This document shows positions 5,780-62,706 of a stretch of DNA of 64,000 bases, in pieces; the first letter of the stretch is position 1, and every line of letters starts with the position of its first letter. This DNA comes from a virus. Its lineage: Duplodnaviria; Caudoviricetes. Under the pieces are notes generated by a model. The model did not search any database, was not told the origin of the DNA, and was given only the letters and a program-made list of their open reading frames with translations. The stretch is taken from positions 15,274 through 79,273 of the IMG/VR virus record IMGVR_UViG_3300011338_000371. The stretch is one strand, 5' to 3'. The position numbers were made by a program, and so were the translations under genes.

Positions 5780-6919
5780 ATGCCTATTGACAGTTCATTA
5801 GAGAACTTAGAGTTCTTTGACAGTTTTTCCGTGGATGATCCTCTAGATTTAGATGATAATACTCCACAAGACCCTAACGCAAACGTCAAGCCTGACATTC
5901 TAGGTGGTGAGGATTTCGATCCCCTAGCCGAAGAAGAGGAAGACGACTTACCAAATCCCCCTGCTCCTAAAGCTCCTGAACCTGTAGAAGAGGAAGAGGA
6001 AGAAGAAGAGGAGGAGGAAGTAGATTTGGAAGGTGACGATGATGAAGAAGAAAACTACTTTGAAATCTTTGGTAAAGGATTAGCTAAAGCAGGAATGCTT
6101 GATGTAGCTGACGACGAAGATATCGAGTGGAACGAACAAACGTTCTTGGCTAAGATGAGTGAAACCATCGAAGACCGAGCTTGGAATCAGTTAGAGGAAA
6201 TGGCAGTAGAAACCTACGGAGAAGCAGGAGTACAGATGATCGAAGATATCTTCATCAATAAAGTCCCTGTTCAAGAATACCTCCAACGATTTGCTAATGA
6301 GCAGATTGTAGAGAATGTAGACTTGAGTGTAGAAGAAAACCAAGAAAGAGTTTTCCGCTTATACCTAGCTAAGACAGGAATGGATGAAGATGAAATCCAA
6401 GATCAACTTAACTACGCTAGAGACAATGATCGCTTAGAAGCATACTCTCAGAAGTATCACGTAAAACTGATTGAGAAGATGCAACAGGAAAGAGCAGCAC
6501 TTGCACAAGAGAGTGAAGCACGAGTACAAGCGATGAGACAGAAAGAAGAAGAAAGAGAACAGTTATATGCAGATGTACTTGATGGAGCTATTGCTTCAGG
6601 GTCTATCGAAGGATACCCAATCAACGAACAAGCTGCAAGTGAACTTTTTGATTTTGTTCTTTCTAAGCCTCACGTTCTTCCTAACGGACAACGTATTAGT
6701 GACTTTGAATACAAACTCGCTAAAATGCGTCAGGAAGATCCAAGTAAGTTCTTAGCTGTAGCTAAACTTGTTCAAAGCGATTTGGACTTGACTCCAGTAA
6801 AAAGGAAAGCTGTAACAGAGGAAACAAACACTCTGTTCAACGACCTTAAAACCAAAAGTAAAAAATCAACGAAGGCAGCGAAGTCTAACGATGACCTGTT
6901 TTCTAGATATTTTAAATAA
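5780..6919 (+). CDS. Acidic head scaffolding-like protein
   Basis: 379 aa, D/E-rich N-terminus with poly-E run and helical C-terminus, between portal and major capsid protein. Confidence 0.7.
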   Translation: MPIDSSLENLEFFDSFSVDDPLDLDDNTPQDPNANVKPDILGGEDFDPLAEEEEDDLPNPPAPKAPEPVEEEEEEEEEEEVDLEGDDDEEENYFEIFGKGLAKAGMLDVADDEDIEWNEQTFLAKMSETIEDRAWNQLEEMAVETYGEAGVQMIEDIFINKVPVQEYLQRFANEQIVENVDLSVEENQERVFRLYLAKTGMDEDEIQDQLNYARDNDRLEAYSQKYHVKLIEKMQQERAALAQESEARVQAMRQKEEEREQLYADVLDGAIASGSIEGYPINEQAASELFDFVLSKPHVLPNGQRISDFEYKLAKMRQEDPSKFLAVAKLVQSDLDLTPVKRKAVTEETNTLFNDLKTKSKKSTKAAKSNDDLFSRYFK

Positions 6920-13344: not shown

Positions 13345-15225
13345 ATGTCTACCTGTATTGATTGCACTGGAACTATATATACACCTTGCTCTGATGTAAG
13401 TTGTTTGTCTACTAACTACGGTAAGTGTATTACTTACTCAGGCTCTCCTCTATACTGTGCTACAGGTGGAGTAGGAACTCTTACTTTTACAGGAACTGCA
13501 GTTGCTCCTTTGACAACTACAGAAGTTACCTTGACTCCTACAGGAGGAACAGGAACTGGACTTCAGGTTAAAGTTACACGTACTCCTGGATCTGTTGCTT
13601 ATAATGTTACAATTGTTTCAGTAGGATCTTCTTACACAGTAGGAGACACTATTACAATTGCAGGAACTTCTTTAGGAGGTGCTACCCCTGCAAATGACCT
13701 AGTACTTACAGTAGCTAGTCTTGCTGCTTTGATCTCTAATACAACAAGTGTAGATGATGCTATCGTAAACTTGCACCAGAGACTTTGTACCATTACTTCT
13801 GTAGGTCTTAACTACTCAGGATTCAACTACTCTTGTCTTCGCTTAGGTGGAGGACTTACAGGCGTAGGTACAGCAATCACAACTGCTCAAGGATTTACTG
13901 AAAGTGCTGCAAGTGCTTTATGTTCTTTGAATACAAGAGTTGTAGCTGTTGAGACTCCTACCTTTACTGTTCCTAGTTGTATCTCAGGATTGACTTCTGC
14001 AAGTTCTACTCTAGGTGCAATCTTGACTGCGTATGGTTCTAAGATCTGTACTATCAACACTAACGTTGATATGACTGGAGTTCTTAGCAACCCTTGTATT
14101 GCTTATCCTTTCTCTACTAAGCCTACTTCTACTGTAGTTTCTGATTACTTGAACTGGATTACCAGCAACATGTGTGGAATCTACCAAAGTCTTTCTACTG
14201 ATATTAGTACTGTAGGGACTACCGTAACTAGTCTTAAGACTTATGTAGCGGGTGTAGGATCTATTCCTGCATCTATTAATACTTCTTGTATCTCAGGAGG
14301 ATCTGCAACAAGTACTTTGGCAGCAGCAGCTATTCTTTGGACTAGTCAAATTTGTGCCATCAACACTACTCTAAGCTCTCTTGCTACTTCAAATTACGCT
14401 TTGACTTGGGCAACTAACTTTGGTGCTACTGCTTATTATGGTTATACTTTTAACTACACTAACACAAGTACTACTCTTCAGACTCAATTGGATCGTATTG
14501 TAGCTACTTTGGGTAGAATGAAGATGAAGTTAAATGCTTCTGACTTCACTGCAACAAGTGACTCAGATGGACTTAACGTCTCTTTAGCTTCAGGTGTTCG
14601 CTTTACTTGCTCTCAGTTAAATAGTTGTTCTATCTCTTCTTTATCAGACGTAACTACAACAGCTCCTGCTACCTTTGATGGTTTGTTCTGGAGTGGTTCT
14701 GAATGGGTAAACAAAGAAATTATCTACACATCTACAGGAGGCAGCGTAGTTGTTACACGTGCAGACAACCCTACTAATATTACTGTAAATATTGAAACTG
14801 CAAGTTCTACCGCAACTACTGTATCTACTACGGCTCTTACTAATCCTAATCTAACAGTAGGACCTTCTGTTAGGTTCTCTACAGGAGTAGGTTTGCCTAG
14901 ATTACATAAACAAGGACAGATAGTAACTGTAGAAGGAACCATTTCTGTTACCGCTACTGGATCAGTAACTTGGGCAAATAATGCAAACATAGGATTTCTT
15001 CAAATCCCTCTTGCTTATCAATCGACAGTTCCTGTATACTTTGCTGCAGACATCTACTTGTATACAGCAGCATCTCCTTCTGTACCTACAGGTGTAGCTA
15101 GGGGAATTGTTACTATGAGTGGAAGTTCTTTGATTGTGACCCTTGTTAATCCTGCAGGAACTTTAAGTTTCTCTACAGGAGACTCATTTGAAATTGTTAT
15201 CGGAGGAAACTCTTATAAACTGTAA
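13345..15225 (+). CDS. Tail fibre-like protein, probable start at ATG 13345
   Basis: Thr/Ser/Gly-rich with Cys-rich N-terminus (CITYSG motif shared with CVKYTG of the preceding gene) and beta-rich C-terminal domain. Confidence 0.65.
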   Translation: MSTCIDCTGTIYTPCSDVSCLSTNYGKCITYSGSPLYCATGGVGTLTFTGTAVAPLTTTEVTLTPTGGTGTGLQVKVTRTPGSVAYNVTIVSVGSSYTVGDTITIAGTSLGGATPANDLVLTVASLAALISNTTSVDDAIVNLHQRLCTITSVGLNYSGFNYSCLRLGGGLTGVGTAITTAQGFTESAASALCSLNTRVVAVETPTFTVPSCISGLTSASSTLGAILTAYGSKICTINTNVDMTGVLSNPCIAYPFSTKPTSTVVSDYLNWITSNMCGIYQSLSTDISTVGTTVTSLKTYVAGVGSIPASINTSCISGGSATSTLAAAAILWTSQICAINTTLSSLATSNYALTWATNFGATAYYGYTFNYTNTSTTLQTQLDRIVATLGRMKMKLNASDFTATSDSDGLNVSLASGVRFTCSQLNSCSISSLSDVTTTAPATFDGLFWSGSEWVNKEIIYTSTGGSVVVTRADNPTNITVNIETASSTATTVSTTALTNPNLTVGPSVRFSTGVGLPRLHKQGQIVTVEGTISVTATGSVTWANNANIGFLQIPLAYQSTVPVYFAADIYLYTAASPSVPTGVARGIVTMSGSSLIVTLVNPAGTLSFSTGDSFEIVIGGNSYKL

Positions 15226-15269
15226 TACGACATTGGCAGGATTTTTTGGTTGGTTTTCCTGTCATCTTG

Positions 15270-15306
15270 CTAGTAGGAGCCTGCGAAAGTGGGCTCTTCT
15301 AGTTTT
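15270..15306 (+). terminator. GAAA-tetraloop terminator
   Basis: GAGCCTGC-GAAA-GTGGGCTC stem with G-U pairs, extended by CTAG/CTAG, then T4. Confidence 0.7.
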
Positions 15307-15317
15307 AAAATAAACTC

Positions 15318-15348
15318 TTGACTTAAAGTTAAAATTAAATTATATTTG
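15318..15348 (+). promoter_or_regulatory. Bacteroidota-type promoter for the tail operon
   Basis: TTG 15318-15320, 20-nt spacer, TATATTTG 15341-15348. Confidence 0.75.
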
Positions 15349-15384
15349 TAATAGGTCTTAAATTAACCCAAACTATATTCTAAC

Positions 15385-16026
15385 ATGTACACGAATTCGG
15401 AATTAATTGCTAGAGTCAAAAGTGCTAACAAGTTTGTTAGTGACGATGACATGATTAGTGACCGTTACTTATACGGGTTGCTTAAGACCAAAGCTGCTAC
15501 TCTTTTACGCAGAGAAATTAATCTAAGAAGACTTTTAACTTCTGACAATGTATACCAAGCTTACGAGTGTGTACACTTGATTGAGGCTAAAGGTGCAGAA
15601 TGTGATTTGAATTGCCCTATCCGTAGAACTAAGCATAAATTGCCAAACATTGATGAGGGCTTGTATTCTTATTTTATTCAAGGGGTGTTTAACACTTCTA
15701 ACTCTGAGGAACTTTTTCCTACTACTATTAGAGATTTCATTAATCACACTCGTTTACGTTTTAAAACCCCTAAAAAGTATTATACCATTCGTAATGGATA
15801 TCTTTATGTTTTAGATCCAGATGTAGAGTGTGTGAATATGTACGCTTACTTTACAGAGTCTATCGAGGACCTAGATGGAACTCAGTGTATGAGTATGTAT
15901 GATAAACAGTTTAAGTTTCCTGCCTACCTGACAGATACTTTGATTGAAATGTGTAATCAGTCGCTTATTAACTTTCACAAGTTACCTTATGAGACTGAGG
16001 ACAACAACAGAGACGAACCCAACTAA
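15385..16026 (+). CDS. Tail ring protein
   Basis: 213 aa; DDMISDRYLY and YYTIRNGYLYV segments; crAss-like tail synteny. Confidence 0.65.
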   Translation: MYTNSELIARVKSANKFVSDDDMISDRYLYGLLKTKAATLLRREINLRRLLTSDNVYQAYECVHLIEAKGAECDLNCPIRRTKHKLPNIDEGLYSYFIQGVFNTSNSEELFPTTIRDFINHTRLRFKTPKKYYTIRNGYLYVLDPDVECVNMYAYFTESIEDLDGTQCMSMYDKQFKFPAYLTDTLIEMCNQSLINFHKLPYETEDNNRDEPN

Positions 16027-16028
16027 TT

Positions 16029-16523
16029 ATGTCGAAAGACTTTGTAAAAGCAAATAAAACCCCTTACGTCAGGCAGAAAGAGAGAGATACAACTTCGGAT
16101 ACGAACTTTCTCTCTTACAAAGCCTACACCATGTTCTTAAAAGAAACCAAAAGAAAAGACATCACCTACAAACAATTTTGTGCTATCCCTAAACAAGTAC
16201 ATATCAAGTTAGTAGAACGTCTTTTAAGAGGTAGATATAGTATTAGATTCCCGAACTTAGGTTCTATTAAAATTGTAAAAACAGAAAATGCAATTCCAGA
16301 AGCTAAACGTACAATTATTAACTGGAAACTCTACAAAGAAACTGGAGTTAAAGTGCCTTATAGAAATTCACACACCAATGGTGCTGTCTATAAATTTCAC
16401 TTGTATCCATACTATAAGAGGATAGTTCAGTTTGGGTTCTATGACTTAAGAATGTCTAACGTACATAAGGCAAACCTAGCTAAGGCTATTAGAGAAGATA
16501 AAATAAACATAAGTTCCTTTTAA
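16029..16523 (+). CDS. IHF/HU-like DNA-binding protein of the tail module
   Basis: 164 aa, basic; helix-helix then SIRFPNLGSIKIVK beta segment; lies between ring genes as in crAss-like phages. Confidence 0.6.
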   Translation: MSKDFVKANKTPYVRQKERDTTSDTNFLSYKAYTMFLKETKRKDITYKQFCAIPKQVHIKLVERLLRGRYSIRFPNLGSIKIVKTENAIPEAKRTIINWKLYKETGVKVPYRNSHTNGAVYKFHLYPYYKRIVQFGFYDLRMSNVHKANLAKAIREDKINISSF

Positions 16524-16524
16524 A

Positions 16525-17361
16525 ATGAAATACGCTAATACACCCTTTATTTCTTCTGAACCACTTATTGCTGAAGTAAAGCAAGAGTTAAAGACTTACT
16601 TTGAAGCAGGTGCTATTAGTGAAGTACTTATTCCAACCTTCATAGACCAGGCTTTAAGAAAACTTAAAGTAATGGTACTAGAACCAGAAGAACTAGTTCT
16701 TAATTTTACAAACTACAAATCCGAGTTACCTTGTGACTTTGCTTTACTTGACTACGCTATTCATTATGATTCCGAAACTTTCTGGGGTCAAGGAGTAAAC
16801 TCAGTAAAGGGCACTTGGTATAAATCTATACAATGTACTAATGGCTGCACAGATTGCGGTCTAAAGGAAGAAATCTACGAGACAGTATCTGTACCTACTC
16901 CAGGATTTAAAATCACTATGAAGCATCCTACTTGGATTCGAGTTTACCATGGCTCTAAAGCTATGTGTACTGAAGGATGCGAGAACTTGAATGTATCTTC
17001 TGAAAATATTATCCAAATTCATCCTAACAAAACCGTTACTTCTACGTTTGAAAGCGGTTGTGTGTATATTAGATATTACTCACGTCCAATGGACGATGAT
17101 AACCTACCTATGGTGCCTGAAATTCTTGAGGTTGAAGAGTATATTAAATCTTATCTTAAGTTTAAGTTTTTTGAACAACTTTGGCATTCAGTAGTTGATG
17201 AGAGTCAGCGTCAGGTAGAAGCTAAGTTTCAATACTACAGACAAGATCAATTAGCCAAACTTCAGGCTGCATTTAGTTACTTGTTAACCTACACCAAACA
17301 GCAGATGGCTGACAACGTAGCTAAGACAAGAACTCGTTTTAACAGGTTCCATATCTCCTAA
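16525..17361 (+). CDS. Tail ring / tubular protein
   Basis: 278 aa directly before the muzzle gene; VYIRYYS...DDDNLPMVPE motif. Confidence 0.7.
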   Translation: MKYANTPFISSEPLIAEVKQELKTYFEAGAISEVLIPTFIDQALRKLKVMVLEPEELVLNFTNYKSELPCDFALLDYAIHYDSETFWGQGVNSVKGTWYKSIQCTNGCTDCGLKEEIYETVSVPTPGFKITMKHPTWIRVYHGSKAMCTEGCENLNVSSENIIQIHPNKTVTSTFESGCVYIRYYSRPMDDDNLPMVPEILEVEEYIKSYLKFKFFEQLWHSVVDESQRQVEAKFQYYRQDQLAKLQAAFSYLLTYTKQQMADNVAKTRTRFNRFHIS

Positions 17362-17366
17362 GTTTA

Positions 17367-20300
17367 ATGCAAAACAAAATCAATCAGAACACGGCAGGTT
17401 TAAACCTTGATTCGGTTAATTACCAGATCAAGGAGAACATGATTACGTATGCCTTGAATGCAAACGTGCAGTCTCATGATGGTAACTCTACCACATATAC
17501 TAACGAGCCTTCAAACCAAATCTGTTATGATTTTAGTTTGACTTATCCTGGATTTAGAGTACTTAATGTTTTAAGTATTATAGAACAGTCTAAGTTAATT
17601 GTCTTCTTAGCACATCCAGATGGACGTTCTTTGATTGGACAAGTTACTGACTTAGGAAAAGACTGTACTAGTCTAGTAGAAAGTGAAACAGATTGTGGTT
17701 GCATATCAGGTACTGTATTAGATAGTACAGTATTAAGTAGTTTAAGTCCAATAGCTGGAACTGGAGAATGTCCTACAGGATATACCTTTAATAGTAAATC
17801 AGGTTTTTGTGAAAAAGTAATTAGTACTCCTATACAGGAAACTATCGCAAAACAATCTGTTATTTCTTCGTGCAGAGCTGCCGACCATGGAACTACACTT
17901 ACTAGAGTATACAAAGATACTTGGACTACTCAAACTCCTCCTACATATCATACTGTAGTAGAGTCTAACTTAACTCAATCTTTTTGGTATCCAGGGGGTG
18001 GTTTTTCTTATATTAAACAAATTGGTATTCAAGCAGATATTGATGATACTAATGATCCATGTGGAACCCAGGAAACTCCTGATTTTTTAGGGTTTACTGA
18101 AACGATTTGTATTAGTGATACTAAACAATACTACTTAGGATTAGCTGCAGATGATTCTCTGAGGGTGTCGATTGATGGGAGTATAATTTTTGATTTTGAC
18201 GCTTCAGATCCTTCTAAAAGCTTTGCAACACTTACAGACTTATGGGCAAGGTACAATCTATTTCCTGTTACTATAACCAAAGGCAGTCATCTTTTAAAAT
18301 TTGAATATAAAAATCAACCTACGGGTAATCCAGGAAATAGGGGGATGTTTGCCTATGAGCTATATGACATCTCTTTAACACAGTTGACAGATCCAAACTT
18401 AACTAGAGTTATTTTACAAAATAGTCGAGTTTTAAGTAATGGTAAACCTATTACTTCTGAAACAAAAGCTTCAGGTCGTATACTACAGATTAGTTATAGT
18501 GGAACTGCTACTGGAACTTATACGATTTCAAGTGCAGTACAAAGTAGTACTTCTGGAACAGGAACTGATGCAGAATTTAAAGTAGTTGTTGATTCGGGAG
18601 TTATTACCTCTGTAATACTTAACTACTCAGGTAAAGGTTACAAAACTGGAGATACTCTCACTATTTCTTCTGGAAGTGCTCTTAATTTAACAATTACTGT
18701 AGTAGCTGCTTCAGTACAAGAAGATTTTATTGAACTCTCTCAAGCATGTCCTGCAGGTTATAGTTTATATGTAAACGAAGATTGTGTAGCTTCTTGTCAG
18801 AAGATAGATCAAAAAAGTGCAATTATTCCAGCAAGTTCTGTAAATTGTTGTACTTTTACTCCTCTAGTTGTAGACGACTGTTGTGATTGTACTGACTGCT
18901 ATAGATACTCTGCACAGTCAATCAATAATACTGCCTACTCTATTACTTACATAAACTGTAACGGAGTAGAAGTAACAGAAACCTTTCCTTCAGGTATAGG
19001 AACATTTACTGCTAAAAGAAATAAGTACACACTTCCTTCTGGAGTAGAAGTACTAGACAGTACCTTAGAGTCTCAAGGAACATGTAGTCCTAAGACAGGA
19101 ACTTGTTGCTTAAACCTATCCCCAGATTATCCTGTCTATTCTGAATATAGAATAGATGACTGTGAGACTAAGGTTTACTTTATTGCAAAGAATATACAAC
19201 CTCGTTATTTCTCATTAGAAGAACCATTAGGTCGTGATCAATGTGGTGATGCCATTGACTGTCTTACAGACTCTTGTGAGCGCTTAAAACTGTTCCCTGA
19301 CTTCTGCCAAGCAGATATCTATCCTACTGGAATTGATTCAGGTGGAAGACTTAAGGGAGGGGTATATTCTTTCTCTATTGCTTATGCAGATGAGAATGGA
19401 AAAGAACTTACCGACTACGTAGACTTTAGTAATCCTATTCCAATTTTTGAGAGGACTATTACTGAGCAGACAGAGTACGAAACCTCTAAGTCTATTAGAG
19501 TTTCTATAGACCACAGTACTGCTGTATTTGATTACTTTAACTTAGTAGTAGCTGAGAATATAAATGAAGTAACTACATACCAACTAGTAGGTACTTATAG
19601 AGTAAATCAATCTACTTACAGGGATTCCTTGGTTTATACAGGAGACTATTCTTCTACTTTCTCTTCTATTGTTCCTTTAATTCGTAGTCCTCATTATGAG
19701 ACTGCAGGTATTATAGAAAAACAGAATGACATTTTAATGTTGGCTGACTTAGTAGAGACTCCCAAGTATAACTTCCAATTACTTGCTAACCAAATTAAGC
19801 TTCGTTGGGAAACTGTTAAAATGCCAGTTGATAACAAGTTTGATTACTCTAATCCAGAAATTGCTTACTTCTTTAGAACCTATCAAAGGGATGAAGTTTA
19901 TCCTTTTGGTATTAAGTTTAAACTAAAGAATGGTAAGTATACAGATGTATTCCATATTCCAGGAAGAGAAGTATTCCAGAACTCAGATGAGAGATCTCTT
20001 ATCTATCACGATAGCAATCCAGATGCATTTGGTACATCTAATGATTGTATAATCACAGACAAAGAAGAAAAGTGGAAAGTATACAATACAGCTACAACAG
20101 GTATTACTCCTCCTAATAACACTCCTTCTCTACAAGAAGCTCAATACTCCTGTAAGATTACAGTAGAAACTTCTGGAGAATTTGCTTACTGGGAATCTAC
20201 AGAGACTTATCCTTGTTACGATGAAGTCTGGGGAGCATTAGCAGGTCAACCTATTCGTCACCATAAGTTCCCAGAGAATGCTAAGTCACATATCCATGCA

Positions 20301-22316
20301 GATGGAGATGACTTTATCTACCCTATTGGAGTACGTATTTGGGATGAGACTTTCTTTGAAGGTATCTTAGATAGAGAAACAGTTTACGATCCCCTAAACA
20401 CATACGGTAATCATCGTATTCCTGTAAAGGAATTAATCTGTGGATATGAGTTGGTAAGAGGTAATCGTGTTAATAATAAATCAGTAGTTGCTAAGGGCCT
20501 TATTTATGATGTAGGTTCTTTTGAGGACGTTAAGTCTGGTAAGAAGTACTACTACCCTAACTACCCATACAATGATTTACGCCCTGATAGATACATTAAA
20601 TCTACTCCTGATTGGTATGACCTAGCAGATAGGGGATCTGAATCAGATTCTTTTGGAATGGGATTGCATGAAGGTTTTAATACTATTGGATCTCGTTATA
20701 CATTTCATTCACCTGATGTACACTTCCAGTATCCTAAGATTGGTACAGAACTAAAACTAGAAACAGTAGAGTATGGTAAAGTACAGGGTAAGTTTGTTCC
20801 TGTATTAGATCATCCTCAGTATAAGTTCTTGACTAAGGCCGATTATGCCTTAAGCGCTTTATTATCTACTGCATTGTCTTTGGCTTTTGAGTCTGAGGCT
20901 GGATCAAATGGATCAGGACCATATACTAATAGTAAGTTAAAAGCAGATGCTATTTCCATTCTTACTAATAACCAGGTCCTTCTTGATTTACTTGAAAAAC
21001 TTATACCGAATACAAATTTTGCTTATCAGTTTAACTCTATAGGGGAATATAAAAGATTCTCTCCTATTACAACCATAGGTAACAGAAGAAGATTCTTAGA
21101 TATTGGTCTTTATGCTAACGATAAGATTGTAGAATTAAACGATGATCGCCCTCTCCATAATAGACTTAGAGAAACTTCTGTCTACTTAAAAACTAATGGA
21201 TCTTTTAGCACTGAGTTTCCAGGAATAGTTGATAACACTCGCTATACTATTGAAGAGAATAATTTGCAAGATGATCCAGAAAAAATAACTGAATCAGATA
21301 CAAGAGCCTATTACTCTTCTATCAAAAGAAATTTCCCTAATCAGTATGGACAGATAGAGAGTATTACATATGTGTCTACAGGATATTCTTGTTCTGTTTA
21401 TACAGACATCTCTAATACTGCAAAGATTAGGCGTAGGTATTATCCTGCTTTTGGTGGAGATACTTACATTAACAAGTTTGCTCTTAAACGTAAGCATTCA
21501 TTCTTTACTCGTAATTTAGCTAATCTTCCTGCTAAAGTAGATAACGTTCCTTTTGATTATTGGCTTTATCCTAATTTAGGATTTCCTACTTACTACATAG
21601 GAGAGTCGCCAGAAGAAATAACCTCAGGTGCAGCTACAAGTTTAGTAGCAGGAATAGCAACAGCATTAACTACTGCATTAGGTCTTTCATTAGCTGGAGC
21701 AAGTACTGGTGTAGCTCTTAATACGGCTATATCTGGTGCACTAGCTGCTATTTATAGTTTATTTGTTAAGAAGAATAACTTAGATGGTGCTGCTACTGTA
21801 ACTATTCCTAACCCTATTCCTGGACAACCTGACCTTGATATTCCGACTTCTTTCTTTTATCAGAAAGGATTCTTCTATACAGCGTCTTATGGTATTCCCA
21901 TTTTTTATGTGGAGTCTGATATTAACGTAGACCTACGTCATGGAAGAAACGACTTAGAAGAAAACTTTTACCCTAATGTAGGAGATGGTATTCCTGATGA
22001 GTGGTTGCATGAAGTTAATGTGCCTATTAAGTTTGATAACTTCTACCACTACAACGCTACTTACTCTGCACAGAACTTAAGTCCTAATCTTCCTTATAGA
22101 TTAAAGTATCCTTCACTAGAGTGTCTGACTATCCATTCAAATAGAGTTATCTACTCTGATCCTGCAAACTCTTCTAATTATCTTTCTGATGCTTGGAGAG
22201 TATTCCGTCCAGGAAACTTTTATGATTTTCCTAAGCAAGGTGGTCGCTTAATTGATTTAAATGCAGGAGAGAACGAAAGAGTATATGCTAGATTCGAGAA
22301 TACAACTAAAGTATAA
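17367..22316 (+). CDS. Muzzle / tail stabilisation protein, N-terminal 1649 aa
   Basis: N-terminal GLNLDS...TYALNANV, RTYQRDEVYPFGI, IRHHKFPEN, YELVRGNR, FGGDTYINKFALKRK motifs; ends at an in-frame TAA. Confidence 0.8.
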   Translation: MQNKINQNTAGLNLDSVNYQIKENMITYALNANVQSHDGNSTTYTNEPSNQICYDFSLTYPGFRVLNVLSIIEQSKLIVFLAHPDGRSLIGQVTDLGKDCTSLVESETDCGCISGTVLDSTVLSSLSPIAGTGECPTGYTFNSKSGFCEKVISTPIQETIAKQSVISSCRAADHGTTLTRVYKDTWTTQTPPTYHTVVESNLTQSFWYPGGGFSYIKQIGIQADIDDTNDPCGTQETPDFLGFTETICISDTKQYYLGLAADDSLRVSIDGSIIFDFDASDPSKSFATLTDLWARYNLFPVTITKGSHLLKFEYKNQPTGNPGNRGMFAYELYDISLTQLTDPNLTRVILQNSRVLSNGKPITSETKASGRILQISYSGTATGTYTISSAVQSSTSGTGTDAEFKVVVDSGVITSVILNYSGKGYKTGDTLTISSGSALNLTITVVAASVQEDFIELSQACPAGYSLYVNEDCVASCQKIDQKSAIIPASSVNCCTFTPLVVDDCCDCTDCYRYSAQSINNTAYSITYINCNGVEVTETFPSGIGTFTAKRNKYTLPSGVEVLDSTLESQGTCSPKTGTCCLNLSPDYPVYSEYRIDDCETKVYFIAKNIQPRYFSLEEPLGRDQCGDAIDCLTDSCERLKLFPDFCQADIYPTGIDSGGRLKGGVYSFSIAYADENGKELTDYVDFSNPIPIFERTITEQTEYETSKSIRVSIDHSTAVFDYFNLVVAENINEVTTYQLVGTYRVNQSTYRDSLVYTGDYSSTFSSIVPLIRSPHYETAGIIEKQNDILMLADLVETPKYNFQLLANQIKLRWETVKMPVDNKFDYSNPEIAYFFRTYQRDEVYPFGIKFKLKNGKYTDVFHIPGREVFQNSDERSLIYHDSNPDAFGTSNDCIITDKEEKWKVYNTATTGITPPNNTPSLQEAQYSCKITVETSGEFAYWESTETYPCYDEVWGALAGQPIRHHKFPENAKSHIHADGDDFIYPIGVRIWDETFFEGILDRETVYDPLNTYGNHRIPVKELICGYELVRGNRVNNKSVVAKGLIYDVGSFEDVKSGKKYYYPNYPYNDLRPDRYIKSTPDWYDLADRGSESDSFGMGLHEGFNTIGSRYTFHSPDVHFQYPKIGTELKLETVEYGKVQGKFVPVLDHPQYKFLTKADYALSALLSTALSLAFESEAGSNGSGPYTNSKLKADAISILTNNQVLLDLLEKLIPNTNFAYQFNSIGEYKRFSPITTIGNRRRFLDIGLYANDKIVELNDDRPLHNRLRETSVYLKTNGSFSTEFPGIVDNTRYTIEENNLQDDPEKITESDTRAYYSSIKRNFPNQYGQIESITYVSTGYSCSVYTDISNTAKIRRRYYPAFGGDTYINKFALKRKHSFFTRNLANLPAKVDNVPFDYWLYPNLGFPTYYIGESPEEITSGAATSLVAGIATALTTALGLSLAGASTGVALNTAISGALAAIYSLFVKKNNLDGAATVTIPNPIPGQPDLDIPTSFFYQKGFFYTASYGIPIFYVESDINVDLRHGRNDLEENFYPNVGDGIPDEWLHEVNVPIKFDNFYHYNATYSAQNLSPNLPYRLKYPSLECLTIHSNRVIYSDPANSSNYLSDAWRVFRPGNFYDFPKQGGRLIDLNAGENERVYARFENTTKV

Positions 22317-23570
22317 AACTCTCGTATTACCCTTAGTACTACTTCTCCTTACCAGTTAGAGATTGGTAATGCAGAGATGTTCAAACAAAAGCCTGTAGAT
22401 CTCTCTAAAACAGATCTAGGTTACATAGGAACTCAACACAAGGCTTATGTTAAGTGTGAGTACGGAACATTCTGGGTAGACGCTAAACGTGGTCATATCT
22501 ATCAGATTACAGGAGACGGCTTTAACGAGATCAAAACAGAAAATAACTTTAACTGGTTTAAGCAAAATCTACCTTTCCAGATTCTTAAAGACATTCCAAA
22601 TGCAGATATAGACAATCCACCAATTGGCTTAGGCATTATTATGGGATGGGATGAGAGATACGAGAGAGTGTTTATTACTAAACTAGATTACAGAGTTAAG
22701 CCTGAATACAGAGAAGGTAATCCTTCTGTAATTAAATACATTACTGATTCTTCCGATAGTAACTTTAGAAAGTATGTACTAGAGAGTGGAAGTACTCAAG
22801 TAGAAATTACTTTTGGAGATCCTGCATTTTTTGAGAATAAGTCTTGGACAGTTGCCTATTCTCCTAAGCTTAAGAACTTTATTTCTTTCTACTCTTACTT
22901 GCCGAACTTTTTTGTTCCCCAGTTAGGACACTTTCAGACTATTAGGAATACCTCGACTGGAGCAAGTATCTGGAGTCATAATCTTTCTATCTTTACCTAC
23001 CAGACTTATTACGGAACTCTTTATCCTTACATCTTAGAGTATAACGTAAACTCATTCCCTCAGGTATCTACTATTAATTCTGTTACTTTAATGCAGGATA
23101 TCCAAGAATACTATTCTGACTATGAGTATTATTCTTTGTCTACTTCAAATAATAAGAACTTAGCAAACTTTACTAAGGCAATTATTTACAACAAAGAACA
23201 GTCTTCTGGTGTTATTAAGTTGATTCCTGAAGAGTTTGGTAACACAAGACAGAAGATAACCTATCCTAGAATGACTACAACGGGCATAGAAGCGCTTATC
23301 TCTCGCAGAGAACAGTTGTATACCTTTAACGGATTTTGGAACGTTGCAGCGCAAGGAAATGGCCAACCTTTATGGTCGACTCAGTGGAGTGACTTACTTA
23401 CTCAATACCCTATAGACAAAGTACCTAATACTAAGAGTGTAAGACCTGTATCTGTGTCTTATCAGAAGTCTAAGATTAAGTCTGACTTTGCTAAAGTAAG
23501 ATTAATCCAAGATCAATACTCTAGATTTAAGTTTATTAACACCATTCAAATAACCCAAACCAACCCATAA
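22317..23570 (+). CDS. Muzzle / tail stabilisation protein, C-terminal part (in-frame continuation; first ATG at 22377)
   Basis: Same frame as 17367 with 20 open codons between the TAA and the ATG; YIGTQHK, FWVDAKRG and SWTVAYSP...FISFYSY motifs. Confidence 0.75.
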   Translation, partial: NSRITLSTTSPYQLEIGNAEMFKQKPVDLSKTDLGYIGTQHKAYVKCEYGTFWVDAKRGHIYQITGDGFNEIKTENNFNWFKQNLPFQILKDIPNADIDNPPIGLGIIMGWDERYERVFITKLDYRVKPEYREGNPSVIKYITDSSDSNFRKYVLESGSTQVEITFGDPAFFENKSWTVAYSPKLKNFISFYSYLPNFFVPQLGHFQTIRNTSTGASIWSHNLSIFTYQTYYGTLYPYILEYNVNSFPQVSTINSVTLMQDIQEYYSDYEYYSLSTSNNKNLANFTKAIIYNKEQSSGVIKLIPEEFGNTRQKITYPRMTTTGIEALISRREQLYTFNGFWNVAAQGNGQPLWSTQWSDLLTQYPIDKVPNTKSVRPVSVSYQKSKIKSDFAKVRLIQDQYSRFKFINTIQITQTNP

Positions 23571-23574
23571 CATC

Positions 23575-23955
23575 ATGAAAGAAAAAGAACTCTTTACAAC
23601 AGTTAAGCCCGAAATAGTACTGGGACAGTTATTCCAGTCTAGGGACATCATTCACTTAGCTCACTTACAGACAACTTCGTTTAGTGAGCACAAAGCTTTA
23701 GACGGTTACTACTCAGAAGTAATTGGTCTATTAGATGATTTAGTAGAAGCATACTTCGGAACTATTGGAAAACGCCTAAACTTTAAGATTCCTGGATCAG
23801 AGTATATGAATGCTAAAGCCCATCTTACTTACATGAAAGACTATGTAATGAAACATCGTAATGTATTCGGAAACGAAAACACTCACTTACAGAATATCGT
23901 AGATGAGATCATTGCTTTGATTACTTCTACTTTATACCAATTGACACTAAACTAA
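23575..23955 (+). CDS. Ferritin/Dps-like four-helix protein (phage DUF5856-like)
   Basis: IHLAHLQTTSFSEHKALDGYY...DDLVEAY motif and C-terminal LQNIVDEI...TLYQL. Confidence 0.7.
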   Translation: MKEKELFTTVKPEIVLGQLFQSRDIIHLAHLQTTSFSEHKALDGYYSEVIGLLDDLVEAYFGTIGKRLNFKIPGSEYMNAKAHLTYMKDYVMKHRNVFGNENTHLQNIVDEIIALITSTLYQLTLN

Positions 23956-60789: not shown

Positions 60790-61103
60790 AAGATTTCTCT
60801 GTTAAACTTAACTTCATCCTTGTACTTGTAATCGCTTACTTACTGTATAAGTATGAGTACGTACAAGAACAAGATACCAATCAAGTAATTGCTTTTATAG
60901 ATTCTATAGATAAAGCAAACGACACTTACTTTGAGAAGATAGACTCTTTAGAACATATTAAACACGAAGAGTTTTACAACTACGAAAAAATCACCCTTAA
61001 ATATGACACAATTCAGATTGCTATTGATACTATGCCTGACATTGATGGCACAAAATACCTACTCACAGTTTCTAGACAGCTTACCGCTAAAGGAATTGAA
61101 TGA
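60786..61103 (+). CDS. Spanin-like inner membrane protein
   Basis: N-terminal TM (LNFILVLVIAYLLY) plus coiled coil; ATGA-coupled to the holin. Confidence 0.45.
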   Translation: MKDFSVKLNFILVLVIAYLLYKYEYVQEQDTNQVIAFIDSIDKANDTYFEKIDSLEHIKHEEFYNYEKITLKYDTIQIAIDTMPDIDGTKYLLTVSRQLTAKGIE

Positions 61104-61362
61104 TGAGTTCCTTAAAGGAATTCAAGCACGTGAGAGAGTAGTAAGTCTTAAAAAAATAATTAAGACAGACAGCATCCAATTAATTTACTATAAGGATTCA
61201 TTGATTCCTAACTACCAAAAAGCATTAGATACAGCTAAAATAGAGATAGTTCGCCTAGATACTAAGGTAAGATCTCAAGCAGAAACTATAAAAACATTGA
61301 AGAATGTTTTGAAAGGTGGATTAATTGCTATAGCTTTGTTAACCATAGGGTTAATATTCTAA
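61003..61362 (+). CDS. Spanin-like protein with signal peptide and C-terminal TM
   Basis: Signal-like N-terminus, coiled coil, C-terminal GGLIAIALLTIGLIF; overlaps the previous gene by 101 nt. Confidence 0.45.
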   Translation: MTQFRLLLILCLTLMAQNTYSQFLDSLPLKELNDEFLKGIQARERVVSLKKIIKTDSIQLIYYKDSLIPNYQKALDTAKIEIVRLDTKVRSQAETIKTLKNVLKGGLIAIALLTIGLIF

Positions 61363-61383: not shown

Positions 61384-62706
61384 ATGATGCCAATCTCTAA
61401 ACAGATTATCCGTCACTACATGGATAATCCAAACACAACCGAGACAGCTGTTGAAGTTGCTATCCGATTTAACTTTCATCCTGAACTTAGTAACGAGTTA
61501 AGAGGTAAGAGAGTTCGTGATTTAAAAAGAACAGCAGTAGCCAAACTAGTACGAGAAGACGCTTACCCAGATATTTCTCAATCTTCTTCCGATACTATAG
61601 GAACTTATAACGAGAATCTAGAAAAAGGTACCCTAGAAGTATCTAAGATAGTTTCTGAACAACCTAGATCTCCTGAAGAAATAATAAAAATCCACAAAGT
61701 AGACACTACTAAGTGGAAACTAGTTCAATACTGGAGTAAGGAAAAGAGTTCAGGCTGGTTAGTATCAGCTTTGTTTGCTCACGTCAAACCTGAAGATACT
61801 TTTAATGACGACATAGAAAGCATTCTAAGAGAAGTTTTCCTAGAATCTGGTATCGACATATACCCAACACCTAAAAAGTCTCCTGTAAGCGTTAAAAGAG
61901 GCTTATTTGTGTATATGAGTGACAAACACGTAGGTGCGCTTACACATCCTACTGCTCTTTACGGAAACGAGTATAACGAAAATGTCTTCGAAGAGAGAAT
62001 GAACAAGACATTAGAGGAGATAGAAAGACAAGTTAAAACCTACGGAAGACTAGAAGACTTATTTATTTGTGACTTAGGTGATTCTTTAGATGGTTGGAAC
62101 GGCTATACTACTAGAGGAGGCCATCAGTTACCTCAAAACATGGACAATAAGGAAGCTTTTATGACTTACCTTTATGCTCATAAGAGGTTTTTTGATACTT
62201 TAGTAGAAAGGAATTTAGCTAATAACATTCATGCAGTAATGCAGACAAATGATAACCACGCTGGCGATTATGGATACGTAACCAATCAAGCGCTTAATCT
62301 TTATCTTAACACAGCTTATCCATTCATTAAAGTAACAATAATGGAGAAGTTCTTAGAACATTTTGACTATGGTAAACATACATTTATTTTTACTCACGGA
62401 AAAGACGCTGAGGATCTTAAACATGGTCTTCCCCTTTTCTTAAACGAGAAAGCAGAAAATTTCCTTAACAAGTACATAGACCACCACAAGTTAGGAGAGA
62501 ATAAAAATATCTCAGTGGTAAAAGGAGACCTACATACTGAGAGTATGCAACAAGCCTATAAGTTTAGATACAGAAATGTTTTGTCAATGTATGGCTCTTC
62601 TAAGTGGATTATGAACAACTTTGGTCCAGGATATCCAGGAGTTTCTTTTGATTTAGTAGAAAAAGATACGGATTTAATTTATTCGTTTTATATTCGCTTT
62701 AAGTAA
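61384..62706 (+). CDS. Calcineurin-like metallophosphoesterase
   Basis: SDKHVG, DLGDSLDG, NDNHAG, FTHG and GDLH motifs. Confidence 0.8.
   Translation: MMPISKQIIRHYMDNPNTTETAVEVAIRFNFHPELSNELRGKRVRDLKRTAVAKLVREDAYPDISQSSSDTIGTYNENLEKGTLEVSKIVSEQPRSPEEIIKIHKVDTTKWKLVQYWSKEKSSGWLVSALFAHVKPEDTFNDDIESILREVFLESGIDIYPTPKKSPVSVKRGLFVYMSDKHVGALTHPTALYGNEYNENVFEERMNKTLEEIERQVKTYGRLEDLFICDLGDSLDGWNGYTTRGGHQLPQNMDNKEAFMTYLYAHKRFFDTLVERNLANNIHAVMQTNDNHAGDYGYVTNQALNLYLNTAYPFIKVTIMEKFLEHFDYGKHTFIFTHGKDAEDLKHGLPLFLNEKAENFLNKYIDHHKLGENKNISVVKGDLHTESMQQAYKFRYRNVLSMYGSSKWIMNNFGPGYPGVSFDLVEKDTDLIYSFYIRFK

Follow-up and report, generated by a model that had tools for sequence, protein, structure and literature searches.

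The muzzle protein of the crAss-like phage phicrAss001, gp44, is a hexamer consisting of a seven-bladed beta-propeller with IG and crass-domain insertions. Its chain starts with the ring-joining domain and propeller blades, continues through the IG1, IG2 and crass-domain insertions (IG2 region 318-1021), and then returns to the propeller, of which blade 4 bears the gate loop (Bayfield et al. 2023, PMC10172136). Length differences between relatives in this family reside in the insertions (PMC10172136). crAss-like phages also reassign stop codons, TAG to Gln and TGA to Trp, with many such codons in late genes and often with suppressor transfer RNAs (tRNAs) (Yutin et al. 2021, PMC7886860). Here, we describe a muzzle gene from another crAss-like phage that is interrupted by one in-frame TAA codon. 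The gene lies in a stretch of 64,000 nucleotides (nt), hereafter called the window, which covers positions 15,274 to 79,273 of IMG/VR record IMGVR_UViG_3300011338_000371. It resembles phicrAss001 gp44 in that both of its pieces match the muzzle profile PF25731 above the cut-off, and in its position after the genes for ring proteins 2 and 1, and it differs from gp44 by the premature TAA at an invariant Tyr.

One muzzle gene interrupted by a stop codon

A preliminary description of this DNA had placed two open reading frames (ORFs), 17367-22316 (1649 amino acids, aa) and 22377-23570 (397 aa), in one frame on the plus strand with a lone TAA between them, and both the sequence and the ORF list agree with this. 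The letters around the stop are ACT AAA GTA TAA AAC TCT CGT, in which the TAA is codon 1650, and the 20 open codons that follow it encode NSRITLSTTSPYQLEIGNAE (Table 1). Both ORFs match the Pfam family PF25731 crAss_MUZ (Crassvirus muzzle protein), with 95 bits for the first and 30.8 bits for the second at a gathering cut-off of 27 bits, and both match PHROG phrog_37948 (virion structural protein, 2289 profile positions). A 301-aa segment translated through the stop, with X at the stop position, gave a single PF25731 match covering profile positions 962-1188 of 1224 (65 bits). As this match is unbroken through the stop, the break lies within the matched domain, near profile position 1080. The peptide NSRITLSTTSPYQLEIGNAE is identical in the closest homologues, P0001 and P0003, and is conserved family-wide. 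Because the read-through segment gives one Pfam stretch and the 20 codons match the closest homologues, a chance juxtaposition is ruled out, and the two ORFs are one muzzle gene.

Table 1. Coordinates in the window of the interrupted muzzle gene and its neighbours
Feature	Position	Strand	Basis
Muzzle (tail-tip) gene, 2067 codons, single stop inside	17367..23570	+	PF25731, phrog_37948, contiguous homologues of 1614-2097 aa spanning the whole junction region
In-frame TAA, codon 1650, Tyr in homologues	22314..22316	+	Best 120 of 401 homologues; relatives' DNA
Changed base, A here and T in closest relative L002; third codon position	22316	+	DNA alignment to L002
20 codons from stop to next ATG	22317..22376	+	Conserved coding sequence, no spacer
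ATG of Met1671, internal residue	22377..22379	+	Invariant column in family alignment; leader composition
Ring protein 2, 164-aa ORF, ring protein 1	15385..17361	+	Crassvirus tail-module synteny
126-aa gene, DUF5856 in relatives	23575..23955	+	3' of muzzle gene in every relative examined

The stop replaces an invariant tyrosine codon

A protein search with the junction region gave 401 significant matches, of which the best 120 were aligned. Each of the 120 (48-98% identity; length 1232-2097 aa) spans that region and has Tyr in the column of the stop, within the conserved motif ARFENTTKV-Y-N(S/A)RI. Thus, the KVYNSR site, whose contiguity in homologous muzzle proteins was the check proposed at the outset, is continuous with Tyr in each of them. 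Among the nearest relatives at the DNA level, L002 and L003 have the codon TAT at this site, L012 and L013 have TAC, and there is no indel nearby. These data bear out the earlier suggestion that the TAA takes the place of a Tyr codon in a muzzle protein of about 2067 aa. The site is likewise uninterrupted in more distant phages in culture, namely Leptolyngbya phage Lbo-JY46, Cellulophaga phages phi4:1 and phi17:2, and gut phage csAssE-Sib, which align across it as a single piece or inside a single annotated gene. No close relative turned up when GenBank phages were searched by megablast, and tblastn against the same set returned distant relatives only, all of them contiguous through the site.

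In 56 related loci searched by tblastn, the C-terminal 838 aa are free of stops throughout. A scan of IMG/VR with a degenerate pattern found TAY in this motif in 45 contigs and TAA in none. When 241 million metagenome records were scanned for the motif with TAA, TAG, TGA or TGG, there was one match (L059), which was rejected as a stop-variant relative, since it is an unrelated sequence that matched by chance.

Age of the change and selection downstream

The window and L002 differ at only two positions over the 363 nt of 22275-22637, namely 22316, which creates the stop, and 22376, which is synonymous. On either side of the stop, no relative is nearer than L002 (94-100% identity in 150-nt windows), and a chimeric assembly junction at the stop was rejected on this basis. 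Against three relatives, the ratio of non-synonymous to synonymous substitution rates (dN/dS) was 0.05-0.08 for the sequence past the stop, compared with 0.03-0.12 for that before it. L002, L012 and L003 show no non-synonymous difference from the window in the 20 codons that follow the stop, and the changes downstream of the stop that are private to the window consist of 17 synonymous and 7 non-synonymous (conservative) ones. Since the C-terminal 418 codons carry no sign of decay by these measures, the stop either arose very recently, results from an error, or is still being read through.

A probable consensus error or recent nonsense allele

The change concerns a single base, is unique to this contig, and is followed by sequence under unrelaxed selection. 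The explanation that we favour is that a T or C to A change at 22316 would have turned the invariant Tyr1650 codon (TAT/TAC) of a single 2067-codon muzzle gene into an ochre TAA, in this contig alone. The stop is very probably non-programmed, that is to say, either an error introduced into the consensus by sequencing or assembly, or a nonsense allele that is real and recent. These two are about equally likely, the error at somewhat less than an even chance and the real allele barely behind it. A real allele could represent a defective genome or a minor variant chosen by the assembler, possibly carried through co-infection. All in all, this is an ordinary single-base nonsense change that is private to one contig. 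It resembles the usual ochre mutations in structural genes of phages, and the consensus errors of metagenome assemblies, in being a one-base change of Tyr to TAA with the coding signal intact on both sides, and nothing distinguishes the present case from these. The preliminary description had listed four options for the TAA, of which the data support an error or a nonsense variant and weigh against a natural split and programmed readthrough or recoding.

Several points weigh against a non-programmed stop. The unrelaxed selection downstream would also fit continued translation of the C-terminal part. A random consensus error is, mildly, not especially expected because the rest of the contig is clean: it is 91% coding, two of its ORFs run uninterrupted for 13.2 kb and 6.4 kb, and the genes flanking the muzzle gene have exactly the lengths found in relatives. 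That a nonsense allele should hold the majority in a gene essential to the virion would also be mildly unexpected.

Possible suppression of the stop codon

If the TAA is real, a host ochre-suppressor tRNA or near-cognate decoding could provide enough full-length muzzle protein for the phage to be viable, which we consider improbable. That the TAA has become fixed in a viable lineage, with the muzzle completed by ochre suppression of either kind, appears slightly less probable still. If it were true, it would be an incipient step to TAA recoding, which is unreported for crAss-like phages. The absence of relaxed selection over the 418 downstream codons would fit suppression, but the same dN/dS is equally expected of a days-old change or of an error. 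The muzzle being a hexamer, six copies per virion suffice (PMC10172136), and there is some precedent, since crAss-like phages reassign TAG and TGA, and one of their genomes has a TAA-suppressor tRNA without reassignment (PMC7886860). However, the stop is missing from every relative examined. The terminators of the 57 non-overlapping ORFs in the genome are TAA in 53 cases (93%), TGA in three and TAG in one, so that almost all proteins would be lengthened if suppression were efficient, and no other gene in the genome contains an in-frame TAA. It also weighs against suppression that UAA is the least leaky stop codon in bacteria. Programmed readthrough would imply a stop conserved among relatives, and what is found at this site is Tyr in all 120 aligned homologues, 56 loci free of stops, and TAY rather than TAA in 45 contigs to none. 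A TAA fixed in a replicating phage would amount to ochre suppression in an essential gene, and nothing that we found points there.

A suppressor tRNA elsewhere in the genome, which the preliminary description had proposed to look for, was not detected. The only tRNA that ARAGORN reported on the 79,273-nt contig is a tRNA-Glu(TTC) (L060:5113-5184, minus strand), and neither ARAGORN, lax threshold included, nor Rfam found a tRNA with a UUA anticodon in this contig, which is probably incomplete because it lacks a terminal repeat and the contigs of relatives reach 100-118 kb. The remaining point in favour of suppression is a tRNA-like gene with an unreadable anticodon region at genome positions 5948-6064 (minus strand).

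This tRNA-like gene (L060:5948-6064), located ~9.2 kb before the start of the window, scores 39.7 bits with the Rfam tRNA model. Its acceptor, D and T arms are canonical and CCA is encoded, and a stretch of 59 nt stands where a 15-nt anticodon stem-loop core would be. ARAGORN called the gene in intron mode only, as a doubtful Gly-CCC with a 28-nt intron, and no UUA anticodon could be drawn for it.

A possible two-piece muzzle or reassigned TAA

It is less probable again, and indeed hardly likely, that the 1649-aa product and a 397-aa protein started at ATG 22377 assemble non-covalently into a working tail tip. This explanation has in its favour the in-frame ATG 20 codons past the stop. Split tail-tip proteins are reportedly present in other podophages, and the title of one study (PMC13730344) names a 'split nozzle'. 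Yet no relative is split at this site, the break hits the invariant ARFENTTKVYN motif inside an unbroken Pfam match rather than a linker, and a protein restarted at this ATG would drop 20 strongly conserved residues. The ATG itself does not look like a start. Met1671 occupies an invariant column of the family alignment, and the 20 nt 5' of ATG 22377 contain 35% A and 60% A+T, which matches the leaders of 100 internal in-frame ATGs (mean 32% A, 62% A+T) and differs from those of 35 true starts (50% A, 79% A+T). The earlier remark that this leader is unlike those of other starts is thus upheld, and, judged by conservation and leader composition, the ATG encodes an invariant internal Met and is not an evolved start.

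A natural split among homologues, which would have made this an ordinary two-gene arrangement, was not encountered either. A search limited to short proteins gave 20 matches, several of them 382-397 aa long, and 6 of the 20 were traced to their DNA. All six of these short homologues (382-662 aa) were rejected as natural splits, being contig edges, N-gaps or frameshift artefacts, and there was no true split among the relatives examined. Scaffolds L004, L005 and L062 contain runs of ~100 N within the muzzle gene, L006 carries a frameshifted copy with several frame changes, and L007-L011 and L061 are contig ends. Gene callers restart at Met1671 in such broken contigs because this is an invariant internal residue.

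Two further observations were made on these contigs. In L006:4955-9989 (JGI 3300066022, a 73-kb contig), the muzzle gene is in four pieces in three frames, with a TAA at one frame junction; it is another defective or error-laden muzzle copy, broken at other places. The edges of five contigs lie close together, with base 1 of L007, L008 and L010 corresponding to window position 22354, 38 nt past the TAA site, and that of L009 and L011 to 22375 and 22376, respectively. Each of these contigs comes from a different sample, four of them JGI metagenomes and the fifth an SRA run that Logan assembled, and all of them end inside one conserved block, which looks like a recurrent assembly-graph break where strains diverge upstream.

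Genome-wide reassignment of TAA, for which TAG and TGA reassignment in Crassvirales is the sole precedent (PMC7886860), is already contradicted by stop usage in the genome and can be practically dismissed, as TAA is not avoided but terminates 53 of the 57 ORFs, the muzzle gene has the one in-frame TAA, ORFs of 4395 and 2149 aa are intact, and no suppressor tRNA was detected on the contig. What the locus has in common with stop reassignment in crAss-like phages (PMC7886860) is an in-frame standard stop within a late structural gene; here, however, only one codon is involved, it is a TAA, for which no reassignment has been reported in these phages, 93% of the ORFs terminate with this codon, no suppressor tRNA was detected alongside it, and the stop occurs in no relative. 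Suppression, a two-piece muzzle and TAA reassignment are all without positive support. Other neighbouring ORFs that share a frame in this genome are separate genes in relatives or encode clearly unrelated proteins. One such pair, 61003-61362 and 61384-62706, was rejected as a split gene, since its first ORF encodes a small membrane protein and its second an unrelated one.

Consequences for the protein and its annotation

If the non-programmed stop is a real allele, translation would end after residue 1649, and the last 418 residues, which correspond to the end of PF25731 (approximately profile positions 1080-1224), would be lost. Judging from the phicrAss001 structure, these are probably the C-terminal blades of the beta-propeller, and a product ending at the stop is probably non-functional. 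Such an allele would not give a working tail tip by itself, and its persistence would be brief or helped by a co-infecting wild-type phage. The placement of the break in the domain structure is based on the Pfam profile coordinates and the published domain order. Neither the single sequence nor a 22-sequence profile found any match in the PDB, the solved phicrAss001 chain being too distant. An AlphaFold model of the C-terminal 838 aa, made with a 37-sequence alignment, was poor, with a mean predicted local distance difference test score (pLDDT) of 41.9 and values below 50 around the break. Foldseek with this low-confidence model gave no match at E<=0.001; the weak, insignificant matches were mostly beta-propellers, with 7qol_P at rank 41 (E 0.84).

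The 1649-aa and 397-aa products stand as separate entries in a public protein collection. In annotation, the two ORFs should be treated as a single, disrupted muzzle gene (pseudo or low-quality) and not as two proteins.

Gene neighbourhood and possible mosaic structure

In close relatives, the gene order is Ring 2, 164-aa ORF, Ring 1, muzzle and DUF5856. Window positions 15001-17717 are 97% identical to L002:891-3607, a stretch that encodes PF25702 CrAss_Ring_2 and PF24228 CrAss_Ring_1 immediately 5' of the muzzle gene. The lengths of ring protein 2, the ORF and ring protein 1 (213, 164 and 278 aa, respectively) are the same in the window and in L002.

Muzzle proteins were seen in two length forms, 1701 aa and ~2070 aa. 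An N-terminal insertion in the muzzle gene, 17717-18845, cannot be aligned to the closest relative L002 (1701-aa form versus 2067-2071-aa forms), and from this alignment it appears to be a swappable module within a gene that is otherwise 95-97% identical to L002. At the 3' end of the gene (23300-23570), identity to L002 falls to 87-91% and that to L017, L024 and L007 rises to 94-96%, and this switch of nearest relative suggests a recombination mosaic.

Next to the tRNA-Glu(TTC) gene, the contig carries a full-length match to Rfam RF02979, 'freshwater-1 RNA' (L060:4950-5011, minus strand; 82.7 bits, E 1e-17), which sits in a 1.4-kb ORF-free stretch. Given this RNA motif and the origin of its relatives in environmental metagenomes (JGI and ENA), the source virus, which is a crAss-like phage, is apparently environmental.

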